A stretch of 64,000 bases of DNA from Anaerolineales bacterium (GTDB lineage Bacteria; Chloroflexota; Anaerolineae; Anaerolineales; UBA11858), in the NCBI GenBank assembly GCA_049644605.1, contig JBARSF010000017.1, positions 7,805 through 71,804 of the forward strand. The letters run 5' to 3'. The position numbers were made by a program, and so were the translations under genes. Numbering within the stretch: position 1 is the stretch's first letter; every line of letters starts with the position of its first letter. Of this stretch, positions 45,688 through 64,000 are shown one piece after another. A model generated the notes under the pieces. The model was not told the DNA's origin. It did not search any database and was given only the letters and a program-made list of their open reading frames with translations.

Positions 45688-45692
45688 ACAAA

Positions 45693-49689: not shown

Positions 49690-49697
49690 ACCACTCG

Positions 49698-49810: not shown

Positions 49811-49888
49811 GATAAATACTTATCCTTCACTGAGTCAGAAAATAGCTTATTCATTTATCACGCGTTTGAAAGCTAATTAACGTTAGGC
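49811..49888 (+). other. attI-like recombination site A (two 20-22-nt direct repeats + core GTTAGGC)
   Basis: gataaatacttatccttcac (49811-49830) and gaaaatagcttattcatttatc (49838-49859), then a 22-nt spacer ending taattaac, then GTTAGGC (49882-49888). The same layout occurs at 60421-60506. Confidence 0.6.
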
Positions 49889-49915
49889 ACCGTATCAATA
49901 AAAGGAGGTTAAACG

Positions 49916-50353
49916 ATGAAAAGTGTTTATAACACTGGTGATCGTGCATCAAAATGGATCCGTTGGATTGCACGTATTTGGTCCTCTCCGATCATAATTT
50001 ACTCTCTGATAATGGTTGCCGGCTATGCATGGAACTGGGTGACAACCGGTGTAGCAGACCCCTATGCGGTGGAAGGATATCCCCCCACAGAAGCCCTGCC
50101 CCCCATCTTAATGTTTCTGAGTATCTTGGGATTAGGCATCGCCTGGCGTTGGGAGAGACTAGGGGGAGCGATTACCCTTGTTTTCCTATTAGCAACGGTT
50201 TCGTTGCTTCTTATTCAAAGCCCGATCACTGATGATTTCTATCACTCAGCGATCCCTTATTTTATGTCGGTGGTGATTGCCATCCCTGGAATATTGTTCT
50301 TGGTATGTTGGTGGCGATCGAGAACGGTGCCAATAGTTAAGAACGGTGCCTAA
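49916..50353 (+). CDS. Cassette 1: small integral membrane protein, unknown function
   Basis: 145 aa, 4 hydrophobic segments, AGGAGG RBS. The stop TAA lies inside the R'' core GCCTAAC. Confidence 0.75.
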   Translation: MKSVYNTGDRASKWIRWIARIWSSPIIIYSLIMVAGYAWNWVTTGVADPYAVEGYPPTEALPPILMFLSILGLGIAWRWERLGGAITLVFLLATVSLLLIQSPITDDFYHSAIPYFMSVVIAIPGILFLVCWWRSRTVPIVKNGA

Positions 50354-50422
50354 CCCCCGCTGCACCCGACCCTTCGATCCGCCCTGCGGGCTACTCAGGG
50401 CAGGTGAGCTCTTCCGTTATGC
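50348..50422 (+). repeat. attC1 (75 bp)
   Basis: GCCTAAC ccccgctgcaccc ... gccctg/cagggc stem ... ggtgagctcttcc GTTATGC. The R'' core is the reverse complement of GTTAGGC at 49882. Confidence 0.85.
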
Positions 50423-50473
50423 GCTATCTTTTTTTTGTATGCTAAAGTTCGATGTGTTTGAAGGAGGAAAGCA

Positions 50474-51157
50474 ATGGATTTGTCCTTACTAAAACCATAT
50501 CATGGTTACCAATCATCAATTATTCCATTCTCTAGTGGTTATTATCTCTATCTTGCAAGCTGGGACAGCACACCAACCAGCTTTTCTTCCTTCTCCAATA
50601 TTTGGGTGGTCACGCCAGAAGATAAAAGAATACTATTCGCAGATCCTCCAGCTTCGAGCGAAATTGTCTGTATTTATCATGATTTCCATGAAATCTATGG
50701 AGCGTCAATATCTCTTGATTGGGCTTTAGAAAATCATCTCCGGATTCAATGTGCGTCTCTTAATAATGACAACGAACTGGACGCTGAATTTTACTTACAG
50801 GAGACTCTATCGTCACGATTGCTTGTTTCCCTTGCCAGTAGTCCCCCCACACGGTTCATGGTTTCCAAACCCCTGGTAACAATATCAAACTTCTTGGTGA
50901 ACTTATTTGTAGCCAAGGGAGGCTCGACATTACTTGGAAAAACTGAAACCGGTCAGACTTTCTATAATGGCTCGACTGACCGATTATTTAAAGTCATTCA
51001 AGGTTCTGCAACCTTGAATGGCAAGGATTTGGGAGAGGTTTCAAGACCCACTTGGCCTGTAGAATTTGGTGATGCTATTCCATTTGTTCAGCCTGTGATT
51101 AAGTTGGGAACTCTCTACATACCTTACGAAGAAGAAATGCTGGAGAATAGCGCATAA
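50474..51157 (+). CDS. Cassette 2: hypothetical soluble protein (227 aa)
   Basis: GGAGG RBS. The stop TAA lies inside the R'' core GCATAAC. No family recognised. Confidence 0.75.
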   Translation: MDLSLLKPYHGYQSSIIPFSSGYYLYLASWDSTPTSFSSFSNIWVVTPEDKRILFADPPASSEIVCIYHDFHEIYGASISLDWALENHLRIQCASLNNDNELDAEFYLQETLSSRLLVSLASSPPTRFMVSKPLVTISNFLVNLFVAKGGSTLLGKTETGQTFYNGSTDRLFKVIQGSATLNGKDLGEVSRPTWPVEFGDAIPFVQPVIKLGTLYIPYEEEMLENSA

Positions 51158-51275
51158 CCCCCGCTCCACCCGACAGCCGGTAAAGACGGAAGACGGGGGA
51201 CGGAGGACAGGAAAGGCAAAGCCCGGCTGCGGGTGTCCTTCGTTAGCTCAGGATAATTAAGCTCATCCGTTGGGA
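51152..51275 (+). repeat. attC2 (124 bp, composite 3' end)
   Basis: GCATAAC ccccgctccacccgacagccgg ... cccggctgcgggtg ... GTTAGCT (51242) ... ataattaagctcatcc GTTGGGA (51269). The R'' core is the reverse complement of GTTATGC at 50416. Confidence 0.8.
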
Positions 51276-51288
51276 GGCAACAAAAACT

Positions 51289-52173
51289 ATGTTGATTGAT
51301 CCAAACGAAAATCGTAAAAACATCGAAAAATACTTGAGTAAGAATCTGGGATACCAGGTAGAGTTAGTTCAAGTAACGAAGTTAACGAAAGGCACGCGAG
51401 AAGCCCCCTGGAAATTAGTGATTGAAGCTAATGGAAAAGATGAATCATATGTGCTTCAGTTAGATCAAAAGAGCCTGGATTATGAATATCAAGTTCTAAA
51501 AGTAATGGAACGGATTCCGATTCCCACTCCAAAAGCATATGGACTGGAATTATCAGGGAAAGAAATTGGAGTTCCATGTTACTTTAGTGATTTCATTGAA
51601 GGCGAATCACTGCTAGAGCCAATGCTTGCAGGTGATTTTTGGGCTGAAGAGTTGTACATCAATACAGTCAGTGAATTACAATCAGTCACAGAAGAAGAGT
51701 TAGGAAGTTTTGCCAAGACATTAAAATATGAAACCGCTGAAGATGTGTTGGAAGAAGCATATTCTGACCTGAAAACCGCATCGCGTTCTTTAGTTGATGA
51801 TGCATACAGAGAACTGAAAAACACTATGCTGGAGTTACCCGCAGTACAGTTTAGCAATGGGGATTTATGGCTAGAGAACTTTATCGTGAAAGATAGGAAA
51901 TTAGCGGGTGTTATCGATTTTCCAAACGCAACGTTTAGCGATCCGATATATGAGTTCTTATTGACATTCTTTGTTGCACCAGAACTGCAAGGACGGGGAA
52001 TAGAAGAACGGTATTGTCGCCAAATGGGATATGACCCGTCTGCACTTCATTGGTATCACGGCCTAGAGTATTTTGACACATGGCGCTGGGTCTTAAAAAC
52101 TGGCGAAGGTTTTGTTCATCATACAGCTGAAAGTTTAGAGACAGATTTACGGAATTGGTTAGGTGGTAAATGA
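51289..52173 (+). CDS. Cassette 3: aminoglycoside/choline-kinase-type phosphotransferase (APH family) protein
   Basis: 294 aa with a Brenner-like motif NGDLWLENFIV and a downstream VIDFPNATFSDPIYEF (DFG-like) segment. Confidence 0.7.
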   Translation: MLIDPNENRKNIEKYLSKNLGYQVELVQVTKLTKGTREAPWKLVIEANGKDESYVLQLDQKSLDYEYQVLKVMERIPIPTPKAYGLELSGKEIGVPCYFSDFIEGESLLEPMLAGDFWAEELYINTVSELQSVTEEELGSFAKTLKYETAEDVLEEAYSDLKTASRSLVDDAYRELKNTMLELPAVQFSNGDLWLENFIVKDRKLAGVIDFPNATFSDPIYEFLLTFFVAPELQGRGIEERYCRQMGYDPSALHWYHGLEYFDTWRWVLKTGEGFVHHTAESLETDLRNWLGGK

Positions 52174-52193
52174 CTAAAGAAGCAGACGTTGCC

Positions 52194-52320
52194 GCACAAC
52201 CCAAGTTGCACCGGACTTGGCGATAGCCAAGGGGGTACGTGGCGCGATTTGCTGATTCTAGTTTTGGTTCAAGGATGGATCAGAGCAAATACCGCCAAGC
52301 CAGTGAACAAACCGTTATCT
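52194..52320 (+). repeat. attC3 (127 bp, long family)
   Basis: GCACAAC ccaagttgcaccgg ... gcgcgatttgct ... ccagtgaacaaacc GTTATCT. The R'' core matches the upstream core GTTGGGA at only 5 of 7 positions. Confidence 0.7.
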
Positions 52321-52338
52321 GGCAAAGGAAGCCCTCTC

Positions 52339-53493
52339 ATGAGACTTAATCCATTCAAACTTGAACGCTACTTCGCTAAGCATGAGTTCTCGACCCCGTA
52401 TTTGCTATGTTCCTCGGATTGCGAAAGCATAGAACTGCGGGACCTGCTGGCCCTCGAACCAGGGGCACCAGAGCGGCTATCCGCGCTTTGGCTCGGCTAC
52501 ACGGAGTCACTAGGCAATCCTGAGCTTCGGCATGCCATAACAACACTGTATGATCATATAGAGGCCAATCAGGTTCTTGTGCACGCAGGAGCCGAAGAGG
52601 CGATCTTCAATTTCATGAACGTCGTTCTCAGCCCTGACGATCACGTCATCGTGCATTCGCCCCACTACCAGTCTCTTGGAGAGGTGGCTCGGAGTATCGG
52701 TGCCAACGTATCCGAATGGCAAGGCAATCCGGATAATACGTGGGAACTCGACCTTAAATTTCTGGAAAGTTCTCTCACCGCTCGTACGAAGGTGGTAGTG
52801 GTCAACTTCCCACACAATCCAACCGGGTTTCTGCCTAGGTCCGAGTTCGTACGCGAGCTATCGGCGCTCTCCGATCAGCACGGTTTCATCGTCTTCTCTG
52901 ATGAGGTGTACCGCGGACTGGAACTCGATCCGTCCGACCATTTACCCGCCTTCACCGATCTAAACAATCGCGCTGTATCGCTTGGTGTGATGTCGAAGAC
53001 CTACGGCCTCGCCGGATTGCGAATCGGCTGGATCGCGACTCGTGACGACCGTCTCTTCCGCGAGCTTGCAGCGTTCAAGGACTACACGACCATCTGCAAC
53101 AGTGCTCCAAGTGAGTTCCTGGCGACTCTTGCATTGCGACATGCCGAAGTAATTGTCGAACGAAACCTGCAGATCATCCGCGACAACCTCGATCGCCTCG
53201 ACTCTTTCTTCGACTCTCATACGGATCTGTTCGGCTGGTATCGTCCCAAGGCTGGGTCTATAGCATTCCCCTCGCTGCTACGGGGAGCGGTTGATGAGTT
53301 CTGCGCCGATCTGGCTGAAAAGTCAGGAGTCCTACTGCTGCCGGGAACCCTCTATGGAGAAGAGTACAACTCGTTCCGCATCGGCTTCGGCCGCAAGAAC
53401 TTGCCCGAATCTCTTAAAAGGTTCGAGGCGTACCTGCGAAGACCAGATAACAAGGCTAATTCAGCCGACGTAAAAAGCCGCGCTGCTAATTAG
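52339..53493 (+). CDS. Cassette 4: class I/II PLP-dependent aminotransferase
   Basis: MRLNPFKLERYFAKHEF N-terminus and an SKTYGLAGLRIGW lysine motif. Start moved to 52339 (AAGGAAG upstream) because the track start at 52189 lies inside attC3. The C-terminal codons read into attC4. Confidence 0.8.
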   Translation: MRLNPFKLERYFAKHEFSTPYLLCSSDCESIELRDLLALEPGAPERLSALWLGYTESLGNPELRHAITTLYDHIEANQVLVHAGAEEAIFNFMNVVLSPDDHVIVHSPHYQSLGEVARSIGANVSEWQGNPDNTWELDLKFLESSLTARTKVVVVNFPHNPTGFLPRSEFVRELSALSDQHGFIVFSDEVYRGLELDPSDHLPAFTDLNNRAVSLGVMSKTYGLAGLRIGWIATRDDRLFRELAAFKDYTTICNSAPSEFLATLALRHAEVIVERNLQIIRDNLDRLDSFFDSHTDLFGWYRPKAGSIAFPSLLRGAVDEFCADLAEKSGVLLLPGTLYGEEYNSFRIGFGRKNLPESLKRFEAYLRRPDNKANSADVKSRAAN

Positions 53494-53504
53494 CAGCGTT
53501 AGGC
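53445..53504 (+). repeat. attC4 (60 bp)
   Basis: AGATAAC aaggctaattcagcc ... gctgctaattagcagc GTTAGGC. The R'' core is the exact reverse complement of GTTATCT at 52314. Confidence 0.8.
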
Positions 53505-53510
53505 TGTTGA

Positions 53511-54350
53511 ATGAGTAAAGTGAAAATGATTAGTTTGGAAGAGATACGAATGATACGAATCGATGCTGGACCTTTCACTATGGGAACCAGCGAACGAGAG
53601 ATCGATATAATAGAAAGGCAAGATGATCTCGCCAAGAAATGGAGAATCAAAGGCAACTTCAGTAGAGAACAGCCACAATGCACTATTTCGCTGAAACCAT
53701 ACTTGATATCAAAGTATCCCGTAACAGTTGGGGAATACAGAAAATTCCTAAAAGCAAAAGGATATCAAACACGGCAGTATTGGACAGAAACGGGATGGTT
53801 ATGGGTGCAATCAAATAATAGAAAGCAACCTGATTATTGGAATGAACAAAAATGGACCTGGAATGATAAGCTCCCAGTGATAGGAGTAAGTTGGTATGAA
53901 GCAATGGCATATTGTCACTGGATATGTGAAAGTACAGGAAAGAAAGTGCGCCTGCCAACGGAAGCAGAGTGGGAAAAGGCAGCACGTGGAAGGGATAAGA
54001 GGATATATCCTTGGGGGAATGAGTTTGATGTAAATATGTGTAACACAAGATTGAGTGGACTGAATAAAACAATACCAGTTGATGAAGCTAGCCCAAGTTC
54101 CGAAAGCCCATATAAATGTTGTGACATGGCAGGGAACGCGTCTGAGTGGACGATAAGCGAATTCAAGCCATATCCTTACAAGGGAGAAAATGGAAGAAAC
54201 GAAATTGAAGGAGAGAAATTGCGGGTTGTTCGGGGAGGTTCTTGGTTCAAACCACAAATAAGAGCCAGAGTATCGGCTCGTGGGATGAACGATCCATTCT
54301 TTACAGATAACGATGTAGGATTTAGATTTGTGTGTGAAGCATATGGATAG
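53511..54350 (+). CDS. Cassette 5: formylglycine-generating enzyme (SUMF1/FGE-sulfatase) domain protein
   Basis: [35 protein letters not shown] and RVVRGGSW motifs. Start (53511 or 53526) is uncertain. Confidence 0.8.
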
Positions 54351-54357
54351 AAGCACA

Positions 54358-54481
54358 GCCTAACCACCGCTCCACCCGACAGCCAGGGGCGGGACCGGGG
54401 ACGAGGACGGAAGACCGGGAATAATAATCTGGCTGCGGGTGCCCTTCGTAAGCTCAGCATAATTAAGCTTATGCGTTAGGT
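54358..54481 (+). repeat. attC5 (124 bp, composite 3' end)
   Basis: GCCTAAC caccgctccacccgacagcc ... ggctgcgggtg ... GTAAGCT ... ataattaagcttatgc GTTAGGT. The R'' core is the reverse complement of GTTAGGC at 53498. Confidence 0.8.
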
Positions 54482-54503
54482 CGCAGTTTGTCAGGGAGTG
54501 ACT

Positions 54504-55169
54504 ATGATACGGGCTATTGTAGTGACAGTGGCATTATTCCTCCTCCTAGGAGGGTGCTTATTCGGCGGCGCCGGCACTATGTCATGGCCTATAGCTTGGG
54601 CTGTTCTGGGTATTTATTCCGCCTCCAAGGCGGCTACCTTCGCCTTCGTCGACCCAGCACTCATCAAGGAACGGGCGGCACCCGGGCAGGGCGTGGACCG
54701 CGTTGATAAGGTGCTCGCGACCTTGGGATATCTGGGCCTGTACCCTGGTTCATTTGTGGCCGCTGGGCTTGATGCGGTTCGCTTCGGCCCCTCCATCCCC
54801 ATCCCCCAATTTATCAAGCTGACGGCGCTCCTCATCTTTGCTCTCGGCTATGGCATAGCATTCTGGGCAGTACTTTGCAACCCGTTCTTCTCCACCTTTG
54901 TGCGAATTCAGGATGATCGTGACCACTCGGTCGTCTCATCAGGCGCGTATGCTCTGGTTCGGCATCCTGGCTATGCGGGCGTTCTTCTCGCCCACTTGGC
55001 CCTTCCGCTCGCGCTTGGATCTATCTGGTCTTTGGTACCAGCGGCTGTGGGCACGATCTTGTTCGTGGCGCGAACAGCACGCGAAGATCAAACGCTTCGA
55101 GACCATCTTGTCGGGTACCGTGAGTATCAAACCCGGGTTCGTTGGCGACTTTTACCAGGAGTTTGGTAG
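54504..55169 (+). CDS. Cassette 6: isoprenylcysteine carboxyl methyltransferase (ICMT/PEMT superfamily) membrane protein
   Basis: GAYALVRHPGYAG ... REDQTL ... YREYQTRVRWRLLPGVW. Start set to the ATG at 54504 (GGGAG 5 nt upstream); the track start is a GTG at 54498. Confidence 0.8.
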   Translation: MIRAIVVTVALFLLLGGCLFGGAGTMSWPIAWAVLGIYSASKAATFAFVDPALIKERAAPGQGVDRVDKVLATLGYLGLYPGSFVAAGLDAVRFGPSIPIPQFIKLTALLIFALGYGIAFWAVLCNPFFSTFVRIQDDRDHSVVSSGAYALVRHPGYAGVLLAHLALPLALGSIWSLVPAAVGTILFVARTAREDQTLRDHLVGYREYQTRVRWRLLPGVW

Positions 55170-55202
55170 CCGGATGCCTGCGGGTGAGCTCTTTCGTTGG
55201 GC
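55170..55202 (+). repeat. attC6 remnant (3' half only)
   Basis: ccggatgcctgcgggtgagctctttc GTTGGGC retains the L'/R' half. The expected R'' core (ACCTAAC) and L'' box are absent. Confidence 0.6.
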
Positions 55203-55232
55203 GCGTCTTGGAAACGGTCACGGGAGGTTACC

Positions 55233-55904
55233 ATGAAACATGCCGTTGAATTATTTTTTAGGATTGCCCTTTTGGTGCTCACCTTGTTTATTTGGCTGTG
55301 GGCGCTCAATCAACCGAGTTCAAATACAATGAATCTGATCCTCATTGCAGGAAGTGTATTGTTGGTATTCCCAACCGTTTGGCTCGGGAGGATGATCCTC
55401 GACAGACAGCCAACAACGAGCCGCGCCGCCTGGATAACCATCTTTGTCCATTATGCCGTGTTGATCATATTTGGCATTGCCATCATTCAAGCAGTAACCA
55501 CTCATCAAGATTGGTCTGGCTGGGTACTCCCAGTACCAACTGAAATCGGCTTGTTGTTAGTCATTATTACCGGGGCAGCCGCACTGTTCTCCGTGATAAA
55601 CCTTGCCTTAAAAGGGCTCGGTGCACCTTTTGCGATTGCGCTCAGCAAGAAATTGGCGGTAGATTGGATGTATGCCTGGACGCGTAATCCCATGGTGCTT
55701 GCAACTCTGGCCCTTCTGCTGTCATTGGGAATCTGGTTTCAGTCAGTGCTGTTTGTGCTCTGGGTACTCATCCTGTTTACACCGGCATTGCTTGTCTTCG
55801 TGAAAGTGTATGAAGAACGAGAACTAGAGTTACGCTTTGGGGCATCCTATCTGGAGTACAAATCCAGAACGCCGATGTTGTTTCCAAGAAAGCCAAGAGG
55901 TTAA
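55233..55904 (+). CDS. Cassette 7: second ICMT/PEMT-superfamily membrane methyltransferase
   Basis: MYAWTRNPMVLA ... YEERELELRFGASYLEYKSRTPMLFP. Start set to the ATG at 55233 (GGGAGG upstream). Confidence 0.78.
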   Translation: MKHAVELFFRIALLVLTLFIWLWALNQPSSNTMNLILIAGSVLLVFPTVWLGRMILDRQPTTSRAAWITIFVHYAVLIIFGIAIIQAVTTHQDWSGWVLPVPTEIGLLLVIITGAAALFSVINLALKGLGAPFAIALSKKLAVDWMYAWTRNPMVLATLALLLSLGIWFQSVLFVLWVLILFTPALLVFVKVYEERELELRFGASYLEYKSRTPMLFPRKPRG

Positions 55905-55914
55905 ACCATGTGCC

Positions 55915-56041
55915 GCCCAACACCGGCTCCAGCGGACAGCGGCTCTGCCGCTCGAAAACCGGTGCGATTTGCCAGAAATAGTCCATAATTGAGAAAGAGT
56001 CTCGCCAGCTCCGCGGCTGCGGCTGAGCTCATCCGTTGGGC
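55915..56041 (+). repeat. attC7 (127 bp, long family)
   Basis: GCCCAAC accggctccagcgg ... ggtgcgatttgcc ... ggctgagctcatcc GTTGGGC. The R'' core is the reverse complement of GTTGGGC at 55196. Confidence 0.85.
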
Positions 56042-56084
56042 GGCAATAAATGACTCGCTGGAATATTAGACAAAGGAAGAACAC

Positions 56085-56465
56085 ATGAAGCTGGCAAGAT
56101 GGACTTTTCGAACCGCAGGTATCTTTGGTTTAATCGTGATGGTTCCACTACTTTTTGCTGAGAAGTTGATCGTTCAGATCATGCCACCAGTCGTAAATCA
56201 TCCAGAGTTCTTTTATGGTTTCGTTATTCTGAATATATGCTGGCAGATTTTGTACCTTTTCTTGTCCAAGGATCCGGTCCGATTTCGCCCTATAATGATC
56301 CCTTCCTTTTTCGCAAAAGCAAGCGGACCGGTTGCTTTGATGTGGTTATATTTTCAAGGTCGGATTTCCAGGCAGTGGATTACGACTACAATACTGGATG
56401 GAGTTTTCGCTATCCTATTCTTAATCTCGTTTTGGTTAACAGGGCAGGAAACCAGCAGTGCTTGA
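56085..56465 (+). CDS. Cassette 8: small integral membrane protein, unknown function
   Basis: 126 aa, 4 hydrophobic segments, AAGGAAG RBS. Confidence 0.7.
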   Translation: MKLARWTFRTAGIFGLIVMVPLLFAEKLIVQIMPPVVNHPEFFYGFVILNICWQILYLFLSKDPVRFRPIMIPSFFAKASGPVALMWLYFQGRISRQWITTTILDGVFAILFLISFWLTGQETSSA

Positions 56466-56594
56466 ATACAATAGAGAAGACCAAAAAAAGACTCTAATTT
56501 CGTAGTTGTTTTAAGCAGCCTTCCGGAAGATCCTTATTTCACTTGTTTCTCTCAAGATTTGATTTTGGAAAATAAGAAGTCAAGGGAAAAAGCC

Positions 56595-56651
56595 GCCCAA
56601 CCCCCCAGGCACATGACCGTGCTGCGCTGGGGAGGAAGCGGCGCGTTTTGC
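56595..56651 (+). repeat. attC8 (57 bp, non-canonical R' core)
   Basis: GCCCAAC cccccagg ... ctgggg aggaagcggcgc GTTTTGC. gccGCCCAAC is the reverse complement of GTTGGGCggc at 56035. Confidence 0.7.
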
Positions 56652-57041
56652 AGCATTTGGCTCTGGCTAAACCAGCTTCAGGAACAAAAACGCACGGCAA
56701 ATGATGTCATCGTTAGCCTGGCAAAACTTGCAGATTGAATAATCATTTGGCTGCCTGGACCCGGAATAAGGATTCTGTGAAAATTAATTATGTGGTTTCC
56801 GGAACGATTCGTGCTGGTTATTTTATGATTTATGCTGATCGAGATAAAAATATGGTGGCGTGAATATTCATAAGAAACAATCATTGAATCACCCTTAATA
56901 AATCTCGCTTTTTTAGCTTGATCCCATTTCGGGTAGAAGATGGTGCTGATTATCAGGTTTAAATCCCTTATTCTTGCTATAATCTAGTAGTTACTCAAAA
57001 CCAGATTCTGGATATGTGTTGGACCTCTAGGAGTAATGATT

Positions 57042-58523
57042 ATGGCGCATGATGTGTTTATCAGCTACTCAACCAAAGACAAGACTGTCGCTGATACGAT
57101 TGCAGCCTCACTGGAGGGAAAACAAATCCGCTGCTGGTATGCGCCCAGAGACATCAAAGCCGGGGCCGATTGGGGGGAAGAGATCGCCCAGGCCATTAAC
57201 GCCAGCACGATTTTTTTGCTGATCTTCTCCAGCAGCGCCAACCAGTCTCAACGGGTGCTGGATGAGCTGAATCTGGCCATAACAAAAGAAGCGGTTATTC
57301 TGCCCTTCCGGATCGAAAAGTTGGATCCCAGCGGCGCCATGCAGCTGCATCTTTCTTCCAGGCATTGGTTGGATGCATTCCTACCCTCCTGGGAAAAACA
57401 CATTGATAACCTTGTCAACAGCGTTTTCTCCAATCTGGAAACCGGCGAAAGCACCGCAGCAGTTGATTATGCCAGATCTTTTGATCAAACCTCAAAACCG
57501 AAAAAAAGAAAACTCTGGCTGTTTGGGGCTGTTGGGACCGTTGTTATTGCCGGCTTGGGGGCAATTTTTGGCCTCCCAAAGCTTTTTGGCCCACCTGATA
57601 TCATCCCAACAGAATTAGCACCGACTGTAACTACTCATTCGACGGCGATTATTCCCACCGACACCAGCGTTCCCACACCCATTCTCCCGACCCTGGGCAG
57701 CGCAGAAGCTCCCCTGATCTGGATGTACGTTCCCAGGGATGATATCGACTTTAACGAGGTCAGTACCACAGTTGATGAAATCGTCAAGGATTTTCAAGAA
57801 ATAAATCCGAATTTATCCCTGAAGATTATCCCCGCTACCAATGAAATCACAATAATTGAAGCGCTCTGTGCCGGGGAAGCGCACATCGGATCACTTAATG
57901 CCTTCACATTCATGGCCGCGTCAAGCCGGGACTGTGCTGAAGCCAAATTAATCTGGAGTGCGTACGGCGATATCAACGTTGGAGGTATGATCGTTACTAA
58001 CGCAGACAGTGGGATTACTGATATTTCAGCATTAGAAGGTCAACCGCTTTGCATCCCTAACTATACTAGTACTTCCGGATGGGTATTGCCCTCCCTCGAG
58101 ATTCAAGCATCCATAGAGAGGGATCCTGATTCCTTTTTTAGTGAGATTATCGAAAAAAATGGACATGATAAAGTTATTTGGGAAGTTTATAACGGGAATT
58201 GCATTGCGGGAACAGCCTTTTATGATGCTCGGTTAAATTATTCAGATATCCCTGATATCAATGACCGTGTTGTTATACTCTCTACTACCACCTCTGTCCC
58301 CCTATCAAACTTCAGTTTCAGTAAAATCATTCCACCCGAACTCTCCCAAAAGCTGATTGCCTTTTTCCTCAATTCTGCGGAATTAGATAATTTATCAATC
58401 ATTTGTGGGTATTCCCATCATACAAATCCCATCAAATTAATTGAGATCAATGATTATTACTATAACGAGATCTGGGATTTGTTCCAGCGGGCCGGGGAAA
58501 ACCCGGAAGATTATTTACGGTAG
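57042..58523 (+). CDS. TIR domain - single TM helix - PhnD-like periplasmic solute-binding domain fusion protein
   Basis: N-terminus DVFISYSTKDK ... CWYAPRDI ... IFLLIFS ... VLDELN (TIR_2-like, conserved Glu). KPKKRK then TM LWLFGAVGTVVIAGLGAIFGL. C-terminus ALCAGEAHIGSLNAF, GMIVTNADSGITDISALEGQPLCIPNYTSTSGW (phosphonate-bd-like). AGGAG lies 8 nt before the ATG at 57042. Confidence 0.8.
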   Translation: MAHDVFISYSTKDKTVADTIAASLEGKQIRCWYAPRDIKAGADWGEEIAQAINASTIFLLIFSSSANQSQRVLDELNLAITKEAVILPFRIEKLDPSGAMQLHLSSRHWLDAFLPSWEKHIDNLVNSVFSNLETGESTAAVDYARSFDQTSKPKKRKLWLFGAVGTVVIAGLGAIFGLPKLFGPPDIIPTELAPTVTTHSTAIIPTDTSVPTPILPTLGSAEAPLIWMYVPRDDIDFNEVSTTVDEIVKDFQEINPNLSLKIIPATNEITIIEALCAGEAHIGSLNAFTFMAASSRDCAEAKLIWSAYGDINVGGMIVTNADSGITDISALEGQPLCIPNYTSTSGWVLPSLEIQASIERDPDSFFSEIIEKNGHDKVIWEVYNGNCIAGTAFYDARLNYSDIPDINDRVVILSTTTSVPLSNFSFSKIIPPELSQKLIAFFLNSAELDNLSIICGYSHHTNPIKLIEINDYYYNEIWDLFQRAGENPEDYLR

Positions 58524-58632
58524 ATAACTCTTACCCCTGTGGAATAAAGCGGGAGAATTCAAGCGAAACATCATTCTTATGATCGGCGGGAGCAGAACTG
58601 ATTAAGGTCTGGGAACCACTGCTATAAAATAT

Positions 58633-58677
58633 GGGGCAATAGCCGAAATCGCCGGTTCGAATCCAGTCGTCCCCTCA
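58633..58677 (+). pseudogene. Decayed tRNA-Asp copy (3' half retained, D and anticodon arms missing)
   Basis: agccgaaatcgccggttcgaatccagtcgtcccctca (58641-58677) matches tRNA positions 49652-49689 with about five differences. It is preceded by ggggc, resembling the 5' acceptor strand. Confidence 0.75.
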
Positions 58678-58685
58678 GTGAAAAA

Positions 58686-58712
58686 GGACCACTCGAGAGA
58701 GGGGTTCTTTTT
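58686..58712 (+). terminator. Terminator hairpin copy 2 of 3
   Basis: ggaccactc gaga gaggggttc TTTTT, a degenerate copy of 49698-49724 in the same position relative to the tRNA remnant. Confidence 0.65.
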
Positions 58713-58875
58713 GTGTTAAAGGAGGTATAATGGCAATTCTCCCTAGTAGAATTAGCTGCCCTGCTGAGACCATACCATCACTCAGGGCAGATGTTTGTAA
58801 TCCAAAATCCATAAATGGGGGGATCATCATTGAAGTTATCAGAGAAATTCAATTAAGCAGTCCTTTAGGAGCTCT

Positions 58876-60255: not shown

Positions 60256-60293
60256 AGCCAGTCTCTAAGAGATAAGTTTCATTTAATTAAAAA

Positions 60294-60320
60294 GAACCAC
60301 TCGTGAGAGTGGTTCTTTTT
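60294..60320 (+). terminator. Terminator hairpin copy 3 of 3
   Basis: gaaccactc gtga gagtggttc TTTTT, with stems identical to 49698-49720. Confidence 0.75.
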
Positions 60321-60420
60321 GTGTTTAAGGACAACCCCACGCCAGGTTTTGTCAGCGGCGTAACAACTATGCTACACTGTCATTAGAGGGAGTAGATTTC
60401 GCCGGGTACGATGGATGCCA

Positions 60421-60506
60421 GATAATAACTTATTCATTTAGCAGGAGACATACTGGATAACTACTTATTCAGTTATCCCGCAGTTACAAGATAATTAACG
60501 TTAGGC
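60421..60506 (+). other. attI-like recombination site C
   Basis: gataataacttattcatttagc (60421-60442) and gataactacttattcagttatc (60456-60477), then a 22-nt spacer ending ataattaac, then GTTAGGC (60500-60506). Confidence 0.6.
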
Positions 60507-60550
60507 CACTCGTTTCTGAAAGTGTCTATTCAAGTAAGGATAATCTCAAG

Positions 60551-61501
60551 ATGAATGACAAATTGGATATGAAACGCATTACTATTTTCCTTACCTTCAC
60601 CTTTGGAATCGCCTGGCTCAATGGCTTGATCATCTATCTTACTGGGGGCTTAGTCGATAGCCCGGAAATTATCCCAGGCAGTGGAATCACTATCTCCCTG
60701 GTGCTTTTGGCTGGGGGCTATATGTGGGCACCTGCGTTGGCACACATTCTCACCCGTCTGATCACGCGCGAAGGCTGGAAGGACACTTACTTGCGTCCCC
60801 GAAGGCAAGGATGGCAATACTGGATTGCGGCCTGGTTCATACCGTCTATCATGACTATCCTAGGTGCGGGACTATTCTTTGTTGTTTTTCCAAAATACTT
60901 TGATCCATCGCTCAAAGTGCTTCAAGAGATGCTAGCGAAAACGGGCCAGGACACCTCGACCCCTTTGTGGACGATTGTTATTTTTCAAACTCTCTTTGGT
61001 GTACTGATTGCTCCGTTCATCAACAGCTTATTTTCTTTTGGCGAAGAGTTTGGTTGGCGGGCCTATTTACAGCCCAAACTTATGCCGCTCGGTGGACGTA
61101 AAGCTATACTGTTGATAGGACTGATCTGGGGTGTGTGGCATTGGCCCGTTATCGCAATGGGGCACAATTATGGTCTTGAATATCCTGGTGCACCTTGGCT
61201 GGGTTTGTTGATGATGGTGTGGGTCACAATAGGCCTTGGAACATTCTTGGGATGGCTAACAGTACGGGCAGGCAATGTATGGCCGGCCGTAATCGGTCAC
61301 GCTGCCATTAACGGTATTAGCGGACTGGCTGCCGTATGCGTATTGGGCAACCCTAATCCTTTGCTGGGCCCATTGCCAATTGGTCTAATAGGCTCGGCGG
61401 CATGGGTTTTGCTGACTTTGGCGATTCTCCTGAAGCCTGGTACGCTCGACGCGGGTCATGTTGAGTCGCTCCAGGTGGATGAAGCAAATCCAAAAGTGTA
61501 A
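60551..61501 (+). CDS. Cassette 1': CPBP family intramembrane glutamic endopeptidase (CAAX protease/Abi family)
   Basis: EEFGWRAYLQP, GVWHWP and IGHAAING motifs; multiple TM segments. Confidence 0.82.
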   Translation: MNDKLDMKRITIFLTFTFGIAWLNGLIIYLTGGLVDSPEIIPGSGITISLVLLAGGYMWAPALAHILTRLITREGWKDTYLRPRRQGWQYWIAAWFIPSIMTILGAGLFFVVFPKYFDPSLKVLQEMLAKTGQDTSTPLWTIVIFQTLFGVLIAPFINSLFSFGEEFGWRAYLQPKLMPLGGRKAILLIGLIWGVWHWPVIAMGHNYGLEYPGAPWLGLLMMVWVTIGLGTFLGWLTVRAGNVWPAVIGHAAINGISGLAAVCVLGNPNPLLGPLPIGLIGSAAWVLLTLAILLKPGTLDAGHVESLQVDEANPKV

Positions 61502-61558
61502 TATCAGACGATTCTGAAAATTGAAGAAGTACAAGCAGATTTCGAGAATAGGGGTGCG

Positions 61559-61576
61559 GCCTAACCCAAGTTAGGC
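61559..61576 (+). repeat. attC1' reduced to an 18-bp palindrome
   Basis: GCCTAAC ccaa GTTAGGC, with no inner L boxes. Both cores agree with the cassettes on either side. Confidence 0.65.
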
Positions 61577-61649
61577 CTCATAAATCTATGAATTCTTATT
61601 GTTGATACAATTTGGTAATAAATCGAATAACAAAAATAGAAAAAAAGGA

Positions 61650-61892
61650 ATGAAGGAAATGATACATTTACATGAAAAAGGAACGAAAACTCTAGTAGGA
61701 AATATTAGCGAACAACAGCTACAAGTTTTGATAGATCAGCTCGAAGAAGAATGGTTAGAAGATAAAGATTATTCAATAACACCCTTAATACTTGATGCTT
61801 TTGAAGCTGAAGGTGTTGATTCGGAATTGATCTCAATATTATGGGCTGCTCTTGGGGATCGAGATGAGATCGTGGTTGTTTGGAGTAAATGA
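61650..61892 (+). CDS. Cassette 2': small acidic hypothetical protein (~78-80 aa)
   Basis: ORF rich in D/E (LIDQLEEEWLEDKDY). Start ambiguous (61650 or 61659; the track start at 61599 is unlikely). Confidence 0.55.
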   Translation: MKEMIHLHEKGTKTLVGNISEQQLQVLIDQLEEEWLEDKDYSITPLILDAFEAEGVDSELISILWAALGDRDEIVVVWSK

Positions 61893-61899
61893 ATGTGAG

Positions 61900-62000
61900 G
61901 CCTAACCCCCGCTCCACCCGACAGCCGGTTAAGGACGGACGACCGCGGACGGAGGACCGGAAAGGTAAAGCCCGGCTGCAGGTGAGCTATTCCGTTATGC
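61900..62000 (+). repeat. attC2' (101 bp)
   Basis: GCCTAAC ccccgctccacccgacagccgg ... cccggctgcaggtgagctattcc GTTATGC. The R'' core is the reverse complement of GTTAGGC at 61570. Confidence 0.85.
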
Positions 62001-62004
62001 GTCA

Positions 62005-62610
62005 TTGATCAATACAGGAGTTAAACAATTTCTTTGGAGATTTCTGGTGGAATCAATACTTAGATTAAAGAATCGGAAGATTCGTTTCTTATGGTCCTTT
62101 CTATTCCTTTTTATTACTTCTAGTATTGCTGCATTTCTTGTCTACTATGGAATCATATTGTTGAAAATTGGAAATAATTATGATGCCCCAATCAGGATTT
62201 CTGATGGATATCACGGAGGTTATCTATCGTTGATCTCTGAACACCCTTTCCCTTTTCTTATGTCTATTTCACTAATTCTCGCAATTTCAGGAACCCTATG
62301 GGTTGTTAGTATACTACCTAAATTTCAACGCTTCCAATTCTTACAGATTTTACTAATCCCGTGGATTTCACTAATTATCGCGAGTCCCATCTGGGGTTTG
62401 ATATGGTCAATTTATCGCTGGCCCCCTCAAGGATTTTCAGATTCCTCCGTAATGTGGATGTACTATCGGCATGACTTATTATTCGGGCTTAGATTAGGTT
62501 GGTTATCAGCTCTCCTGTCATTTCCAATTAACATTATCAGTTACGTTTTCGCAGTGGGATTGATCTACCTTAGTTCAAGAATATTCATGATGAAAAACCT
62601 AGACATTTAA
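62005..62610 (+). CDS. Cassette 3': AT-rich integral membrane protein, unknown function
   Basis: About 5 TM segments. The track start is a TTG at 62005; a GTG at 62047 with GGAGA 6-7 nt upstream is an alternative. Confidence 0.65.
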   Translation: MINTGVKQFLWRFLVESILRLKNRKIRFLWSFLFLFITSSIAAFLVYYGIILLKIGNNYDAPIRISDGYHGGYLSLISEHPFPFLMSISLILAISGTLWVVSILPKFQRFQFLQILLIPWISLIIASPIWGLIWSIYRWPPQGFSDSSVMWMYYRHDLLFGLRLGWLSALLSFPINIISYVFAVGLIYLSSRIFMMKNLDI

Positions 62611-62624
62611 CCAGTATTTTATCC

Positions 62625-62749
62625 GCATAACCTCCGCTCCACCTGCGCGCCGGGCAAGCCGGGCGCCCGATCGCTTCTCCCCTTACCAGTTTTTTAATCT
62701 ATAATCAACATTAACTGGCCCCGGCGCCAGGTGAGCTCATCCGTTGGGC
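62625..62749 (+). repeat. attC3' (125 bp)
   Basis: GCATAAC ctccgctccacc ... ggcgccaggtgagctcatcc GTTGGGC. The R'' core is the reverse complement of GTTATGC at 61994. Confidence 0.85.
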
Positions 62750-62788
62750 GGACGTGGCAATCAGGCTGTCACACCAGAGAGAACATCA

Positions 62789-63592
62789 ATGACCACGAAT
62801 ACCAGATTGACGCTAACCCCCGAGCAAGAAACCCTGCTGATTACACTCTATGCTAAGGCGCAACCAGGTAATCCGCTGTTCTTTGACCAGACGGCCCAAG
62901 ACGTTCTGAATCGGGTGGACTATGACTTTACCCGCTTGCATGTCCCCTTCATGACCGTCTTTCTGGTTTGCCAGCGGGCCAAGAAGCTGGATGCCATCAC
63001 CCGTGACTTCTTGGCTGAGCATCCCGGCGGCGTGGTGTTGCAGCTGGGTTGCGGTTTGGATAATCGCTTCTGGCGTGTAGACAACGGTAGCGTCACCTGG
63101 TATGACCTAGATATGCCACAGGTGGTAGAGCTTCGCCGTCAGTTCTTCACTGGAAGCGAACGCTATCACCTGATCGCCGCTTCCGTGACAGACCGGGAAT
63201 GCCTGGCTACAGTCGTGTCAGGTGGGCGGCCGGTGCTTGTGGTGGCGGAAGGATTGCTGATGTATCTGGGCGAGGCCGAGGTGCGGCGGCTAGTGCTCCA
63301 ATTGCACGAGACCTTTCCAGGCTGTCGACTGATCTCGGACGTTTTTAGTCGATTGATGGCACGCTCGGCTTCCAAACATCCTTCGCTAAAATATACCGGT
63401 GCGACCCTCGGTTGGGGCATCGATGATGCGCATGAGTTGGAGGCTTGGGCACCCGGCCTTCGCCTCTTGGAAGAGTGGTATTTCACTGACGACCCCGACT
63501 TGGCTCGTCTTTCTTTTGGGTATCGCATGGCATATAGGCTTTATGGCGCTTTACTGAAACGGGCCCATCGTATCGTGTACTATCAACTGTAA
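62789..63592 (+). CDS. Cassette 4': class I SAM-dependent O-methyltransferase (TcmP / leucine carboxyl methyltransferase-like)
   Basis: LTPEQETLLITLYAKA ..., VVLQLGCGLDNRFWRV and WYDLDMPQVVELRR motifs. Start moved to the ATG at 62789 because the track start lies inside attC3'. Confidence 0.78.
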   Translation: MTTNTRLTLTPEQETLLITLYAKAQPGNPLFFDQTAQDVLNRVDYDFTRLHVPFMTVFLVCQRAKKLDAITRDFLAEHPGGVVLQLGCGLDNRFWRVDNGSVTWYDLDMPQVVELRRQFFTGSERYHLIAASVTDRECLATVVSGGRPVLVVAEGLLMYLGEAEVRRLVLQLHETFPGCRLISDVFSRLMARSASKHPSLKYTGATLGWGIDDAHELEAWAPGLRLLEEWYFTDDPDLARLSFGYRMAYRLYGALLKRAHRIVYYQL

Positions 63593-63601
63593 TCTATGCC
63601 C

Positions 63602-63724
63602 GCCCAACAACCGCTTGCAGCCGACCCCGCGGGCTGCGCGATTTGCTAACAAAGGCACTGGTATGGGACCCTTTAATAGCAAGCCAATATCCGAGCGGGG
63701 CAGCTGAGCTCAAAACCGTTATGC
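63602..63724 (+). repeat. attC4' (123 bp, long family)
   Basis: GCCCAAC aaccgcttgcagcc ... ctgcgcgatttgct ... cagctgagctcaaaacc GTTATGC. ccGCCCAAC is the reverse complement of GTTGGGCgg at 62743. Confidence 0.85.
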
Positions 63725-63754
63725 AGCTTTGAGTTTTTCTTCTGAGATTGATCA

Positions 63755-64000
63755 ATGGATGATACTAAAACCGTTCAGATAATTCACAGATTTGGGCTTG
63801 AGTCTGTCTTATCCTTTGAGGATGATCCTTTCCTTTGGGCAAGTGCTATAAAGAAATATTGGATAAAAGGACGTGGTTTCTCCAATCAGAATCATTCTCT
63901 TTACTTAGATGTAGCGGTCGCAGATCATGAAAGCATGGTCGGCTTGCGAGTAATTGAAAACTGGAGATTTGAACACCGGATGGATGGGCGGTTTAAACCT
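63755..64000 (+). CDS. Cassette 5': hypothetical protein, 3'-truncated by the window edge
   Basis: ATG at 63755, then 82 codons with no stop to position 64000 (MDDTKTVQIIHRFGLES...). It is absent from the ORF track because it has no stop. Confidence 0.55.
   Translation, partial: MDDTKTVQIIHRFGLESVLSFEDDPFLWASAIKKYWIKGRGFSNQNHSLYLDVAVADHESMVGLRVIENWRFEHRMDGRFKP

Follow-up and report, generated by a model that had tools for sequence, protein, structure and literature searches.

Two tandem attI-bearing integron platforms after a tRNA-Asp gene on an Anaerolineales chromosome, with their integrase probably encoded elsewhere

The 64 kb stretch of DNA analysed here (the window) very probably carries two tandem integron platforms, each with its own attI, located after a tRNA-Asp gene on an Anaerolineales chromosome and probably dependent on an integrase encoded elsewhere and acting in trans. 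The names attached to close thiP homologues place the host in the Anaerolineales, in agreement with the Chloroflexota origin proposed in an initial annotation of this DNA. Each platform consists, in this order, of a terminator hairpin, a ∼170-nt leader with a -10-like box, attI and a cassette array. The attI comprises two direct repeats resembling the core plus the core itself, GATAATTAAC|GTTAGGC, and the cassettes of the array are co-oriented, carry single genes without promoters and are each closed by an attC site. The integrase responsible for loading and shuffling the arrays would bind at the attI repeats and at attC sites folded from their bottom strands. The initial annotation was incomplete rather than wrong: it overlooked the attI and promoter leaders at both arrays, a 3' fragment of tRNA-Asp, three copies of a terminator and the recurrence of the whole layout in relatives.

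All features described below are on the + strand. Array 1 (49883..56719) holds eight cassettes with the attC sites S1 (50348-50422), S2 (51152-51275), S3 (52194-52320), S4 (53445-53504), S5 (54358-54481), S6 (∼55177-55202, 3' half only), S7 (55915-56041) and S8 (56595-56719, degenerate); S2 and S5 have a 24-nt insertion in the 3' arm. Array 2 (60501..64000) has four complete cassettes plus the beginning of a fifth, with sites S9 (61559-61576, a minimal site formed by a bare 18-nt R''/R' palindrome), S10 (61900-62000), S11 (62625-62749) and S12 (63602-63724), and continues past the window. The cassette boundaries are inverted-repeat sites, as described in the initial annotation, but the strict RYYYAAC...GTTRRRY form given there does not hold for the cores GTTATGC and GTTATCT. 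Stop codons at 50351 and 51155 do fall within the R'' core. All ten core pairs said to be exact reverse complements were found to be so at their coordinates when re-read from the sequence. Of 11 testable cassettes, 10 have a closing core complementary to their own opening core; the ten matches previously counted stand but not their denominator of 12, since S6 has no 5' half. Comparison of the closing core with the R' of the physical site to which it belongs gives only 2 matches in 11. A shuffle test on these cassettes gave a mean of 2.7 matches (P ∼1e-5), and family-wide there are 63/73 own-cassette matches against 2/73 same-site matches, a circular permutation that bears out the suggested IntI crossover at G|TT. 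When folded, the bottom strands of S1, S5, S7, S10, S11 and S12 showed an R box, an unpaired spacer and an L box, and the bulged bases were on the '' arm, confirming the bulged pairing of the inner boxes.

The window sites are real integron attC sites of a Chloroflexota family. They were tested with surrogate models, namely a covariance model and arm matrices from other loci. The covariance model, trained only on those other loci, scored S1 at 59 bits (E 1.4e-15). Compensatory changes were found at 7 pairs of the attC stem and 88.7% of cells were paired, falling to 28–43% when the partner was slid as a control. In other Chloroflexota contigs the family adjoins bona fide integron integrases, which supports the original reading of the region as a sedentary chromosomal integron or CALIN; the intI of one such locus, L010, scores 450 bits on TIGR02249 (cut-off 265). 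Being imperfect palindromes between genes, the sites might be taken for REPs, MITEs or another class of palindromic intergenic repeat with no relation to integrons. However, all matches of the arm matrices were on the + strand at 50.3–62.8 kb, with no attC arms in the other 49 kb of the window, so the dispersed repeats against which the initial annotation had advised checking were not seen. The sites also carry the permutation signature, lie beside TIGR02249 integrases elsewhere and mark the G|TT at which cassette homology stops. A repeat origin, which has next to no probability, is refuted on these four grounds.

The initial annotation expected an attI on the left without an intI there, and attI was found at both arrays. 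The leader and attI of array 1 (49720..49888) are homologous to the intI-adjacent leaders of L010 and L040, and the leader is colinear with those of L127, L083, L144, L145 and L148. Its elements are the box ATGTTACACT (49763-49772), DR2 GATAAATACTTATCC (49811-49825), DR1 (49838-49852) and the core GCTAATTAAC|GTTAGGC (49872-49888, crossover G|TT at 49882/49883), in which GCTAATTAAC replaces the consensus GATAATTAAC. The leader and attI of array 2 (60326..60506), the positional orthologue of the L144 leader, contain the box ATGCTACACT (60369-60378), DR2 GATAATAACTTATTC (60421-60435), DR1 GATAACTACTTATTC (60456-60470) and the consensus core followed by GTTAGGC (60490-60506). A -10 box and a TTATCNCGC-N10-TAATTAACGTTA end are common to the window leaders and integrase-linked leaders, and in orthologous leaders the attI motifs are conserved while the intervening spacers fall to 53–69% identity. 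The conserved extended -10-like box (ATGYTACACT) in the ∼170-nt leader is presumably the cassette promoter Pc, a call made from conservation and from a consensus scan whose overall match count was not above chance; in leader 2 the scan found TTGTCA-18-TACACT with TG.

As previously claimed, no integrase was detected in the 64 kb, either with Pfam among 50 ORFs (all those of at least 145 aa and most of at least 80 aa) or in tblastn searches that used four tyrosine recombinases as queries. In each of the 22 integrase-linked loci the intI is divergent and starts 104–135 nt upstream of the attI pattern. That position is held by tRNA-Asp and a terminator at array 1 and by terminator copy C at array 2, and neither platform has an intI where integrase-linked relatives of the same leader carry one. 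Five related Anaerolineales contigs, likewise integrase-less at this junction, show the colinear succession terminator, TTTAAG(G), leader, attI; their thiP proteins are 82–93% identical where measured and their thiP-region DNA is 72–85% identical. The first cassette is different in each of the five, the turnover for which a comparison of relatives had been proposed. The junction without an integrase gene is ancestral and inherited across related lineages. In one relative, L148, the crossover is mutated (AGC|ATT) and no attC arms lie downstream. Among public contigs an intI lies alongside only 11 of 55 distinct attI leaders of the window's family, the resulting 80% integrase-less figure being possibly inflated by a search pattern partly built from integrase-less examples. 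Same-strand attC arms follow attI in 35 of 41 integrase-less loci, and an intI remnant is present in only 1 of 53 integrase-less leaders. The comparisons suggest that an integrase encoded elsewhere still serves such orphan platforms in trans.

The products of array 1 are a DUF7670 protein, an unknown, an APH-family kinase, a class I/II aminotransferase, an FGE-sulfatase, two PEMT/ICMT methyltransferases and another unknown; those of array 2 are an Rce1-like/CPBP protein, unknowns of 80 and 201 aa and an LCM methyltransferase. The cassettes were noted before to have their own SD sequences and a mixed composition. Both points hold: most cassette ORFs have a Shine-Dalgarno-like sequence in front of them, clearly so in cassettes 1, 2, 7, 8 and 10, and GC is 0.36–0.57 in cassettes and 0.48–0.50 in most housekeeping ORFs (thiP 0.56). 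In L155 a copy of cassette 1 with 96.5% identity lies inside another array, and the homology begins precisely at 49883, on the TT of the G|TT in attI1. Cassette 3 (51270-52314) is 98.96% identical to a copy in L152 with different neighbours, and here the edges of homology fall at the two R' cores. The chromosomal flanks of the closest relative are only 85–89% identical to the window. The cassettes have moved recently, and they entered by recombination of the integron-integrase type at G|TT. Over 60230-61572 the window is 99.9% identical to a Logan contig, L001.

The intact tRNA-Asp (GTC) gene (49604..49679; ARAGORN, Rfam tRNA 65.6 bits) has a promoter-like TTGACT-16-TAGAAT at 49566-49593 in the promoter scan and occupies the side of attI where complete integrons have intI. 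It is followed by terminator hairpin A (49688..49714; GAACCACTC..GAGTGGTTC and a T run; repeat family D4), which is kept in seven orthologous leaders. The window has two further copies, B (58687..58713) and C (60294..60320), which are 91% identical to each other, with C immediately 5' of leader 2. The 3' part of tRNA-Asp, from the 3' side of the anticodon stem to the 3' terminus, occurs a second time as a fragment (58642..58680) that directly repeats 49643-49679 (repeat D9, 94% identity, 33 nt) and is found also in L144 and L083; this fragment has its own terminator copy, and copy C lies 1.6 kb downstream of it. A gene for a TIR and phosphonate-binding-like fusion (57036..58523; Pfam TIR_2 4.9e-24, Phosphonate-bd 1.1e-26) is not a cassette and gave only generic TIR matches in PADLOC. 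In L144 this gene stands alone between tRNA-Asp and the tRNA-Asp fragment, in a block of 89% nucleotide identity with the window, and the 7.07-kb module 49720-56794 (leader, attI1 and eight cassettes) is missing. Relative to L144 the segment 58876..60255 is an insertion by indel mapping. There lie a PD40 beta-propeller gene (58876-60069; Pfam) and the 3' remnant of a Meth_synt_2 (metE-like) gene (60079-60255) that is intact in relatives, with 77% nucleotide identity to the gene end in L083 and Meth_synt_2 also in L146 and L147. The 3' end of tRNA-Asp may be a hot spot of integration or duplication at which modules (the TIR gene, the metE-like gene, the array 1 module) were added, either adjoining tRNA-Asp itself or flanked by repeats of its 3' half and terminator. 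These additions would have given rise to the tandem platforms.

A classical integron with its intI in cis outside the window, for example past array 2 or moved away by an insertion, is improbable. The window does stop inside array 2, with the 3' context beyond it, and a raised distance threshold merges some CALINs with an integron (PMC4889954). However, the fixed divergent position of intI in the integrase-linked loci is taken up at both arrays by the elements described above, no PF00589 gene is present in the available 4–7 kb downstream of attI/tRNA-Asp in L144, L145 and L148 or, for L146, less than 10 kb from tRNA-Asp, and loci with 7–13 kb upstream of an orphan attI are likewise without IntI. 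A somewhat better case, though still an unlikely one, can be made for fossil arrays, frozen remnants of a once-complete chromosomal integron that lost intI and are drifting towards ordinary chromosomal genes. Loss of intI is listed as one CALIN origin by Cury et al. (PMC4889954) and the mutated crossover of L148, with no attC sites after it, is in favour of this reading. Given the half-site S6, the degenerate S8, the minimal S9, the insertions in S2 and S5 and the deviant attI1 core, array 1 may be partly decaying. Against fossilisation, the attI motifs are conserved between diverging spacers, every orthologous locus has different cassettes, the copy of cassette 1 elsewhere is homologous from the attI1 crossover, cassette 3 is 99% identical in a different array when even the closest relative's flanks are far less so, and an intI remnant is absent here as in almost all integrase-less leaders.

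There is a tentative but appreciable chance that the modules of leader, attI and cassettes are the cargo of tRNA-targeting integrative islands moved by a non-IntI tyrosine integrase, whose targeting of tRNA genes would account for both the tRNA link and the tandem copies. Such islands complement the trans-acting platforms and do not exclude them. The direct repetition of the tRNA-Asp 3' half and terminator, the clean presence or absence of the array 1 module relative to L144 from right after the terminator, and the location of a single gene between tRNA 3' repeats in L144 (the TIR gene) and in L083 (the metE-like gene) are consistent with islands. At other loci an orphan attI follows tRNA-Val or tRNA-Met genes or their 3' fragments, which start in the anticodon loop or T arm. 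A T-loop motif lies upstream of 15/52 integrase-less and 0/18 intI-linked attI (background 0.06 per 400 nt). L153 has a Xer-like recombinase between a degenerate tRNA and the cassettes, but it has no homologue in the other loci. Nor is there an island integrase in the window or L144, the right end of the array 1 module has no visible tRNA fragment, and 30 of the 55 leader clusters are without any trace of a tRNA.

[quoted passage not shown] 2016, PMC4889954), delimited as two or more same-strand attC sites spaced by less than 4 kb and away from any intI. The arrays of the window, with same-strand attC sites at such distances and neither an intI nor an intI pseudogene nearby, are both CALINs by definition, and they count as two by the 4-kb rule since the gap from S8 to S9/S10 is 4.8–5.2 kb. 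The definition ignores attI, whereas these arrays open with an intact attI and a promoter-like leader, and their integrase-less junction is inherited across related lineages. As attI and leader are homologous to integrase-linked ones, an origin by secondary-site insertion or array splitting is excluded. Complete Chloroflexota integrons (L010, L040, L055, L068, L126 and others) have the same attC family, attI end, -10-like box, cassette orientation and types of cassette content, but carry a divergent intI (TIGR02249) ∼30–40 nt upstream of the -10-like box, where the window has tRNA-Asp or a tRNA fragment with the terminator. Sedentary chromosomal integrons (the Vibrio superintegron, the ilvD-linked Xanthomonas integron) resemble the window in a chromosomal location conserved across relatives, homogeneous attC sites (here 75–93% identical between loci), cassettes of mostly unknown or accessory function and toxin-antitoxin cassettes, here in the related arrays L145, L152 and L156. 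The window differs in its two tandem platforms without intI in cis and keeps no intI remnant, whereas in Xanthomonas the inactivated intI is reported to be still recognisable (bioRxiv 10.1101/2025.06.18.660453). With genomic islands at tRNA genes it shares the tRNA 3' direct repeat from the anticodon stem, module presence or absence between close relatives and serial accretion beside an intact tRNA, but it has no island integrase, its repeat reaches into the terminator and its cargo is an integron platform. Cassettes away from the integrase, with trans action implied, are also found in SALINs and attG insertions (Loot et al., bioRxiv 10.1101/2022.09.11.507474); in the window, by contrast, the arrays are long and cassettes are inserted at a bona fide attI rather than a secondary site in the genome.

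The first 49 kb of the window consists of ordinary chromosomal genes, including nusA, infB, truB, ribF and pnp, F420 biosynthesis genes and several xanthine-dehydrogenase-type clusters, and no recombinase was found among them. A TPP riboswitch at 45591-45697 (Rfam RF00059, 64.4 bits) precedes a thiamine operon of thiamine pyrophosphokinase and a thiamine ABC transporter, the last gene of which, thiP, ends at 49438 and has close homologues under source names such as 'MAG: ... [Anaerolineales bacterium]'. An intact tRNA-Asp gene follows at 49604-49679. The initial annotation had seen no integrase in the 64 kb and the searches agreed with this. PF00589 was present in none of the 50 ORFs scanned by Pfam, which included all those of at least 145 aa, and tblastn of the window with IntI_L010 (the recombinase of contig L010), IntI1, XerC and the recombinase of contig L153 gave no match. 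The window thus lacks the intI gene that adjoins attI in a complete integron.

CALINs are about as common as complete integrons. IntegronFinder applies the term where two or more attC sites on the same strand are separated by less than 4 kb and intI is not in the vicinity (PMC4889954), and this describes the window sites. Since the gap between the arrays exceeds 4 kb, the window holds two CALINs by this definition: array 1 at 49883-56719, with eight cassettes and sites S1-S8, and array 2 from 60501, with sites S9-S12. A sedentary chromosomal integron is recognised by the same locus across a species or clade, or by more than 19 attC sites; 12 are visible in the window, which ends inside array 2.

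attC sites from an IntI-associated family delimit the cassettes, which are circularly permuted at the G|TT crossover. The ten core pairs picked out by the initial annotation are exact reverse complements and lie where it had placed them. Its claim that the core closing a cassette complements the core opening that same cassette also stands, although the count is 10 of 11 testable cassettes and not 10 of 12. By comparison, only 2 of 11 closing cores are complementary to the R' within the same physical site, and shuffling gave a mean of 2.7 matches (P ~1e-5). Among 73 consecutive site pairs from related loci, 63 matched within the cassette and two within the site. A crossover between G and TT should leave just such a pattern, with the TTRRRY of every R' being part of the cassette that follows. 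The sites are chimeric in the manner of attC, in the window and in the related loci alike. The inverted triplets of R'' (..AAC) and R' (GTT..) stand at the cassette ends, AAC and GTT being invariant or nearly so in an alignment of 35 sequences. Stop codons do lie inside the R'' core of cassettes 1 and 2, Shine-Dalgarno-like sequences precede most cassette ORFs and cassette GC is heterogeneous (0.36-0.57, against 0.48-0.50 for most housekeeping genes), broadly as first noted.

The L''/L' boxes, the unpaired central spacer and the extrahelical bases of the '' arm that characterise attC were also found. The bottom-strand DNA of S1, S5, S7, S10, S11 and S12 folded into an R box, an unpaired spacer and then an L box, where a G and also a T bulge out of the '' arm. 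S3 and S4 match the same plan by manual alignment of their arms. S6, S8 and S9 depart from it, S6 being a 3' half only and S8 degenerate. S9, at 61559-61576, is a perfect 18-nt R''/R' palindrome (GCCTAACCCAAGTTAGGC) and the only sequence between cassettes 9 and 10, apparently an attC of which just the R box is left. In S2 and S5 the L' arm contains an insertion of 24 nt. Sites of this sub-family read GGTG|TCCTTCGTTAGCTCAGGATAATTA|AGCTCATCCGTT (51236-51275 and 54442-54481 in the window) and were seen in contigs L114, L118, L023 and L075, with a longer version at the same place in L144 (7800-7912).

Rfam contains no attC family and surrogate tests of attC identity were used, for which the stem alignment and a covariance model were made from 35 attC sites, none of them from the window. 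In this alignment 88.7% of cells were paired, against 28-43% when the partners were slid, and seven stem pairs showed compensatory changes. Helix 2 was 93% paired, with bulges at columns 40 and 47. Outer R-box pairs were unpaired in 13-17 of the 35 sites, as expected of chimeric sites. A covariance model of a 'mini-attC' (R1; 27-nt arms joined by GAAA, trained on non-window sites) scored S1 at 59.1 bits (E 1.4e-15). It penalises long central parts (15.7 bits for S10) and was therefore rejected as a general detector and replaced by position matrices for the 5' and 3' arms, again trained without the window sites. These gave seven 5'-arm and six 3'-arm matches, all on the + strand from 50348 to 62749 and every one directly 3' of an ORF. 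Scores were 17.7-41.4 bits except for the S3 5' arm (12.9) and the S2 3' arm (10.5), the shuffled maximum being 10.3. There were no matches in the other 49 kb of the window or on the - strand. Repeats of the REP/MITE kind would be dispersed in both orientations and independent of gene ends; the confinement of the arm matches to one strand, to ORF ends and to 50.3-62.8 kb leads us to reject this reading, and the dispersal against which the initial annotation had cautioned is not seen within the 64-kb window.

When a genome collection was scanned with the 5'-arm pattern, 50 loci matched, of which about 30 are in Chloroflexota MAGs, long-read MAGs such as MFD09964.bin.2.149 and MFD09964.bin.1.182 among them. 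Together with the source names of the thiP homologues, this identifies the host as an Anaerolineales bacterium; the organism or close relatives of it are present in samples SRR28062745 and ERZ25073486/ERZ25073498. In two of the 50 loci, L010 and L040, a tyrosine recombinase ~50% identical to IntI1 adjoins such attC sites; the L010 protein reaches 450 bits against the 'integron integrase' model TIGR02249, for which the cut-off is 265.

Each array in the window begins at an attI, with no integrase in cis. The site had been predicted at the left, and both arrays do open with TTATCNCGC-N10-TAATTAACGTTAGGC, the stretch 49846-49888 being repeated at 60464-60506 with TAATTAACGTTAGGC as its end. It occupies the integrase-proximal array end, as attI does in a complete integron, and is homologous to the site adjoining TIGR02249 integrases. 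The region from the intI start to the first cassette in L010 and L040 contains the same elements as the two window leaders, that is, the stretches of ~170 nt that follow a terminator hairpin. These are a box (ATGCTATACT in L010 and L040, ATGTTACACT at 49763 and ATGCTACACT at 60369 in the window), core-like direct repeats (GATAAYWACTTATYC) and the attI end TTATCNCGC-N10-TAATTAAC|GTTAGGC, the core of which is itself an inverted repeat (AATTAAC / GTTAGGC). On this homology the window's two leaders are bona fide attI regions. Among integrase-linked leaders, those of the L126/L068 type come closest, having the box in its ATGTTACACT form as the tRNA-Asp-linked leaders do. Conservation of the box, ATGYTAYACT, extends over integrase-linked leaders and orphan leaders (attI without adjacent intI). 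A consensus promoter scan found TTGTCA-18-TACACT with TG at 60349-60378, in a scan whose overall promoter count equals chance. Transcription would start from this conserved extended -10-like box, a candidate Pc. The position of the intI start is occupied in the window leaders by the terminator hairpin. Upstream of this hairpin lies the intact tRNA-Asp gene in array 1 and, in array 2, a tRNA-Asp 3' fragment 1.6 kb away, beyond a PD40/metE-remnant insertion. The tRNA terminator would shield the array against read-through.

Five related contigs have a platform at the tRNA-Asp locus, and two, L146 and L147 (thiP 78% identical to that of the window in protein), have none there. After tRNA-Asp and its terminator, L144 (thiP 93% in protein, DNA blocks 85-89%) has a TIR gene, a tRNA-Asp 3' fragment, a terminator, leader, attI and cassettes (TfoX_N and others). 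L127 (thiP 82% in protein) has a leader, attI and an alcohol-dehydrogenase-like cassette, and L083 (75% in DNA for thiP) a metE-like gene, tRNA fragment, terminator, leader, attI and a methyltransferase cassette. L145 (thiP 83% in protein) has a leader with a variant core (CCTTAAC|GTTAGCC) and then cassettes with attC sites. In L148 (thiP 84% in protein) the same leader, at 5775-5817, has a mutated crossover (AGC|ATT; ATAATTAGCATTAGGT) and no attC arms after it, which makes it a 'dead attI' control supplied by nature. From the terminator through to the core, seven leaders are colinear, with an overall identity of only 53-69%; conserved among them are the terminator, TTTAAG(G), the -10-like box, the core and the two repeats. 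This colinearity and conservation indicate that the integrase-less junction predates the split of the lineages, and the functional motifs of the leader have been kept while the spacers drifted. Cassette turnover in related genomes, suggested at the outset as a check, was evident as the first cassette is different in every orthologous locus.

Two clean insertions distinguish the window from L144, one of 7.07 kb directly after the terminator (49720-56794; leader, attI1 and eight cassettes) and one at 58727-60288 comprising a PD40 gene, a metE-like 3' remnant and a terminator copy. The remnant, a 58-codon ORF at 60079-60255 with a GC of 0.67, belongs to a Meth_synt_2 (metE-like) gene that is intact beside tRNA-Asp in L083 (minus strand, about 1945-882) and L146 (14296-15363). 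Contigs L149 and L151 end right after thiP/tRNA-Asp, as in several related assemblies, and such breaks are consistent with a repeat-rich, strain-variable locus.

The tRNA-Asp terminator is present in three copies, at 49688, 58687 and 60294, and the 3' half of tRNA-Asp recurs at 58642-58680 (49643-49675 and 58642-58674 are 94% identical). A direct repeat of the tRNA 3' part therefore flanks an insert, here and in L144 and L083, as it does in tRNA-targeting genomic islands. Unlike in such islands, no island integrase was found in 49.7-64 kb of the window or in L144. Both the tRNA 3' repeats and the presence of two arrays in tandem suggest that integration or duplication has happened more than once at the 3' end of tRNA-Asp, and the two arrays may have arisen in this way. 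A fusion of TIR (N-terminal) to a periplasmic phosphonate-binding-like domain is encoded at 57036-58523 of the window and 4855-6351 of L144. In L144 this gene stands alone between tRNA-Asp and the repeat of the tRNA 3' half with its terminator, much like a one-gene island. PADLOC found no defence system among the window's cassettes, giving only generic TIR matches to this non-cassette gene.

A metagenome scan with the attI pattern TTATCNCGC-N10-TAATTAACGTTA returned 92 stretches. Together with L010, L036 and the window's two sites, 70 attI sites had at least 400 nt upstream and formed 55 clusters at 90% identity. intI was alongside attI in 11 of the 55, always divergent and with its start 104-135 nt from the pattern; the corresponding figure of 80% orphan clusters may be inflated because three of the four sequences behind the pattern were orphan. 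A tRNA gene or T-loop-bearing fragment lay within 400 nt on the same strand in 14 clusters, and the remaining 30 showed other contexts. Counted per site, such a tRNA element accompanied 15 of 52 integrase-less sites versus 0 of 18 intI-linked sites, with a background of 0.06 per 400 nt. Same-strand attC arms followed the orphan attI in 35 of the 41 loci with enough sequence, and another array lay upstream, as in the window, at 6 of 34 orphan sites with at least 1.5 kb upstream. Remnants of the intI 5' end were found upstream of one orphan leader in 53 (L134).

The tRNA fragments beside orphan leaders derive from tRNA-Val and tRNA-Met and begin in the T arm or anticodon loop, the usual crossover places of tRNA-targeting integrases. 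No repeat of the tRNA-Val 3' end was found downstream of the long arrays L100 and L122. In L036 (826-1050, 3436-3456), L054, L057, L078 and L117, orphan leaders come after piles of 3' fragments of tRNA-Met and tRNA-Val, every fragment with a terminator behind it. A junction 'tagttatcaaaacc | tRNA-Val T arm' is conserved in four contigs, and several contigs contain two attI platforms within a few kb. The tRNA fragment, leader and attI might together be a cassette that recombines at attI, which predicts a preceding R' of GTTAATT, the complement of the attI L box AATTAAC. This is present in L117 and absent in L078, L087 and the window, and the idea was rejected.

Cassettes differ between orthologous platforms and have near-identical copies in other arrays with boundaries at the crossover. 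Cassette 3 (APH-family, 51270-52314) is 98.96% identical over 1059 nt to a copy in L152, which comes after a metallo-beta-lactamase-fold gene and before Fer4, PhdYeFM/ParE and LCM cassettes. The homology runs from the R' core (GTTGGGA against GTTGGGC) to GTTAT|C against GTTAT|T, which are the two crossover points. Cassette 1 (DUF7670), adjoining attI1, is 96.5% identical to a copy in L155 and 88.8% to one in L156, both inside other arrays, with homology beginning exactly at 49883 and 49882, respectively, the G|TT of attI1. Given that the chromosomal flanks of the closest relative are only 85-89% identical to the window and that the orphan junction is older, these insertions or reshufflings most simply took place when intI was already absent from the locus. 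It is chiefly this inferred order of events that argues for an integrase in trans. Such an integron integrase, with its gene elsewhere, would bind the repeats of attI and the bottom strands of attC in their folded form and insert circular cassettes at attI1 and attI2, excision being by attC x attC recombination.

CALINs have been proposed to originate by integrase loss, rearrangement or secondary-site insertion (PMC4889954; bioRxiv 10.1101/2022.09.11.507474). Rearrangement and secondary-site insertion do not fit the window arrays since each begins at an intact attI leader. Loss of the integrase does fit, but it came before the split of the lineages, and turnover went on after it. For this Anaerolineales integron family as a whole, the chances seem to us evenly balanced that attI is usually 'orphan', with platforms of promoter, attI and array that stand apart from intI, often after a tRNA gene and terminator, are vertically inherited, sometimes in tandem, and are kept working by one integrase elsewhere in the genome.

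Chloroflexi integrons are already known and the arrays as such are ordinary objects for a specialist; what is out of the ordinary is that the orphan attI is conserved, persistent and prevalent. The literature covered, which was incomplete and is not proof of absence, contained no account of platforms at tRNA genes that have attI and lack an integrase. [quoted passage not shown] In the present case attI can be recognised for an entire environmental integron family. Arrays that lack an integrase have kept it, together with its repeats and a promoter-like box, and these arrays persist across related lineages despite cassette turnover. If the platforms are indeed orphan in this sense, many CALINs would be satellite integron platforms under purifying selection and not debris. 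Should an integrase elsewhere serve them, one integrase could run several arrays, surveys anchored on intI would undercount active platforms and the question 'are CALINs alive?' would become directly testable.

An APH cassette copy of 80% identical DNA, with homology from exactly window position 51269, occurs in L153 (7880-9130) and L154. On the same strand, 180 nt upstream of this copy, is the gene of a 304-aa Xer-like tyrosine recombinase, which scores only 89 bits on TIGR02249 and has a degenerate tRNA and terminator ahead of it. With an attI-like AATTAAC-N5-GTTGGAT junction and a different attC family, L153 and L154 may represent a different kind of cassette platform. The L153 recombinase was rejected as a general partner of the arrays, no close homologue being present in the window or 150 loci. 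No toxin-antitoxin was seen among the window's 13 cassettes. Such cassettes are described for sedentary chromosomal integrons (PMC13108822) and were likewise seen in the related arrays of L145 (13299-13930), L152 (3407-3975) and L156 (327-665), as HigB/HTH_3, PhdYeFM/ParE and PemK.
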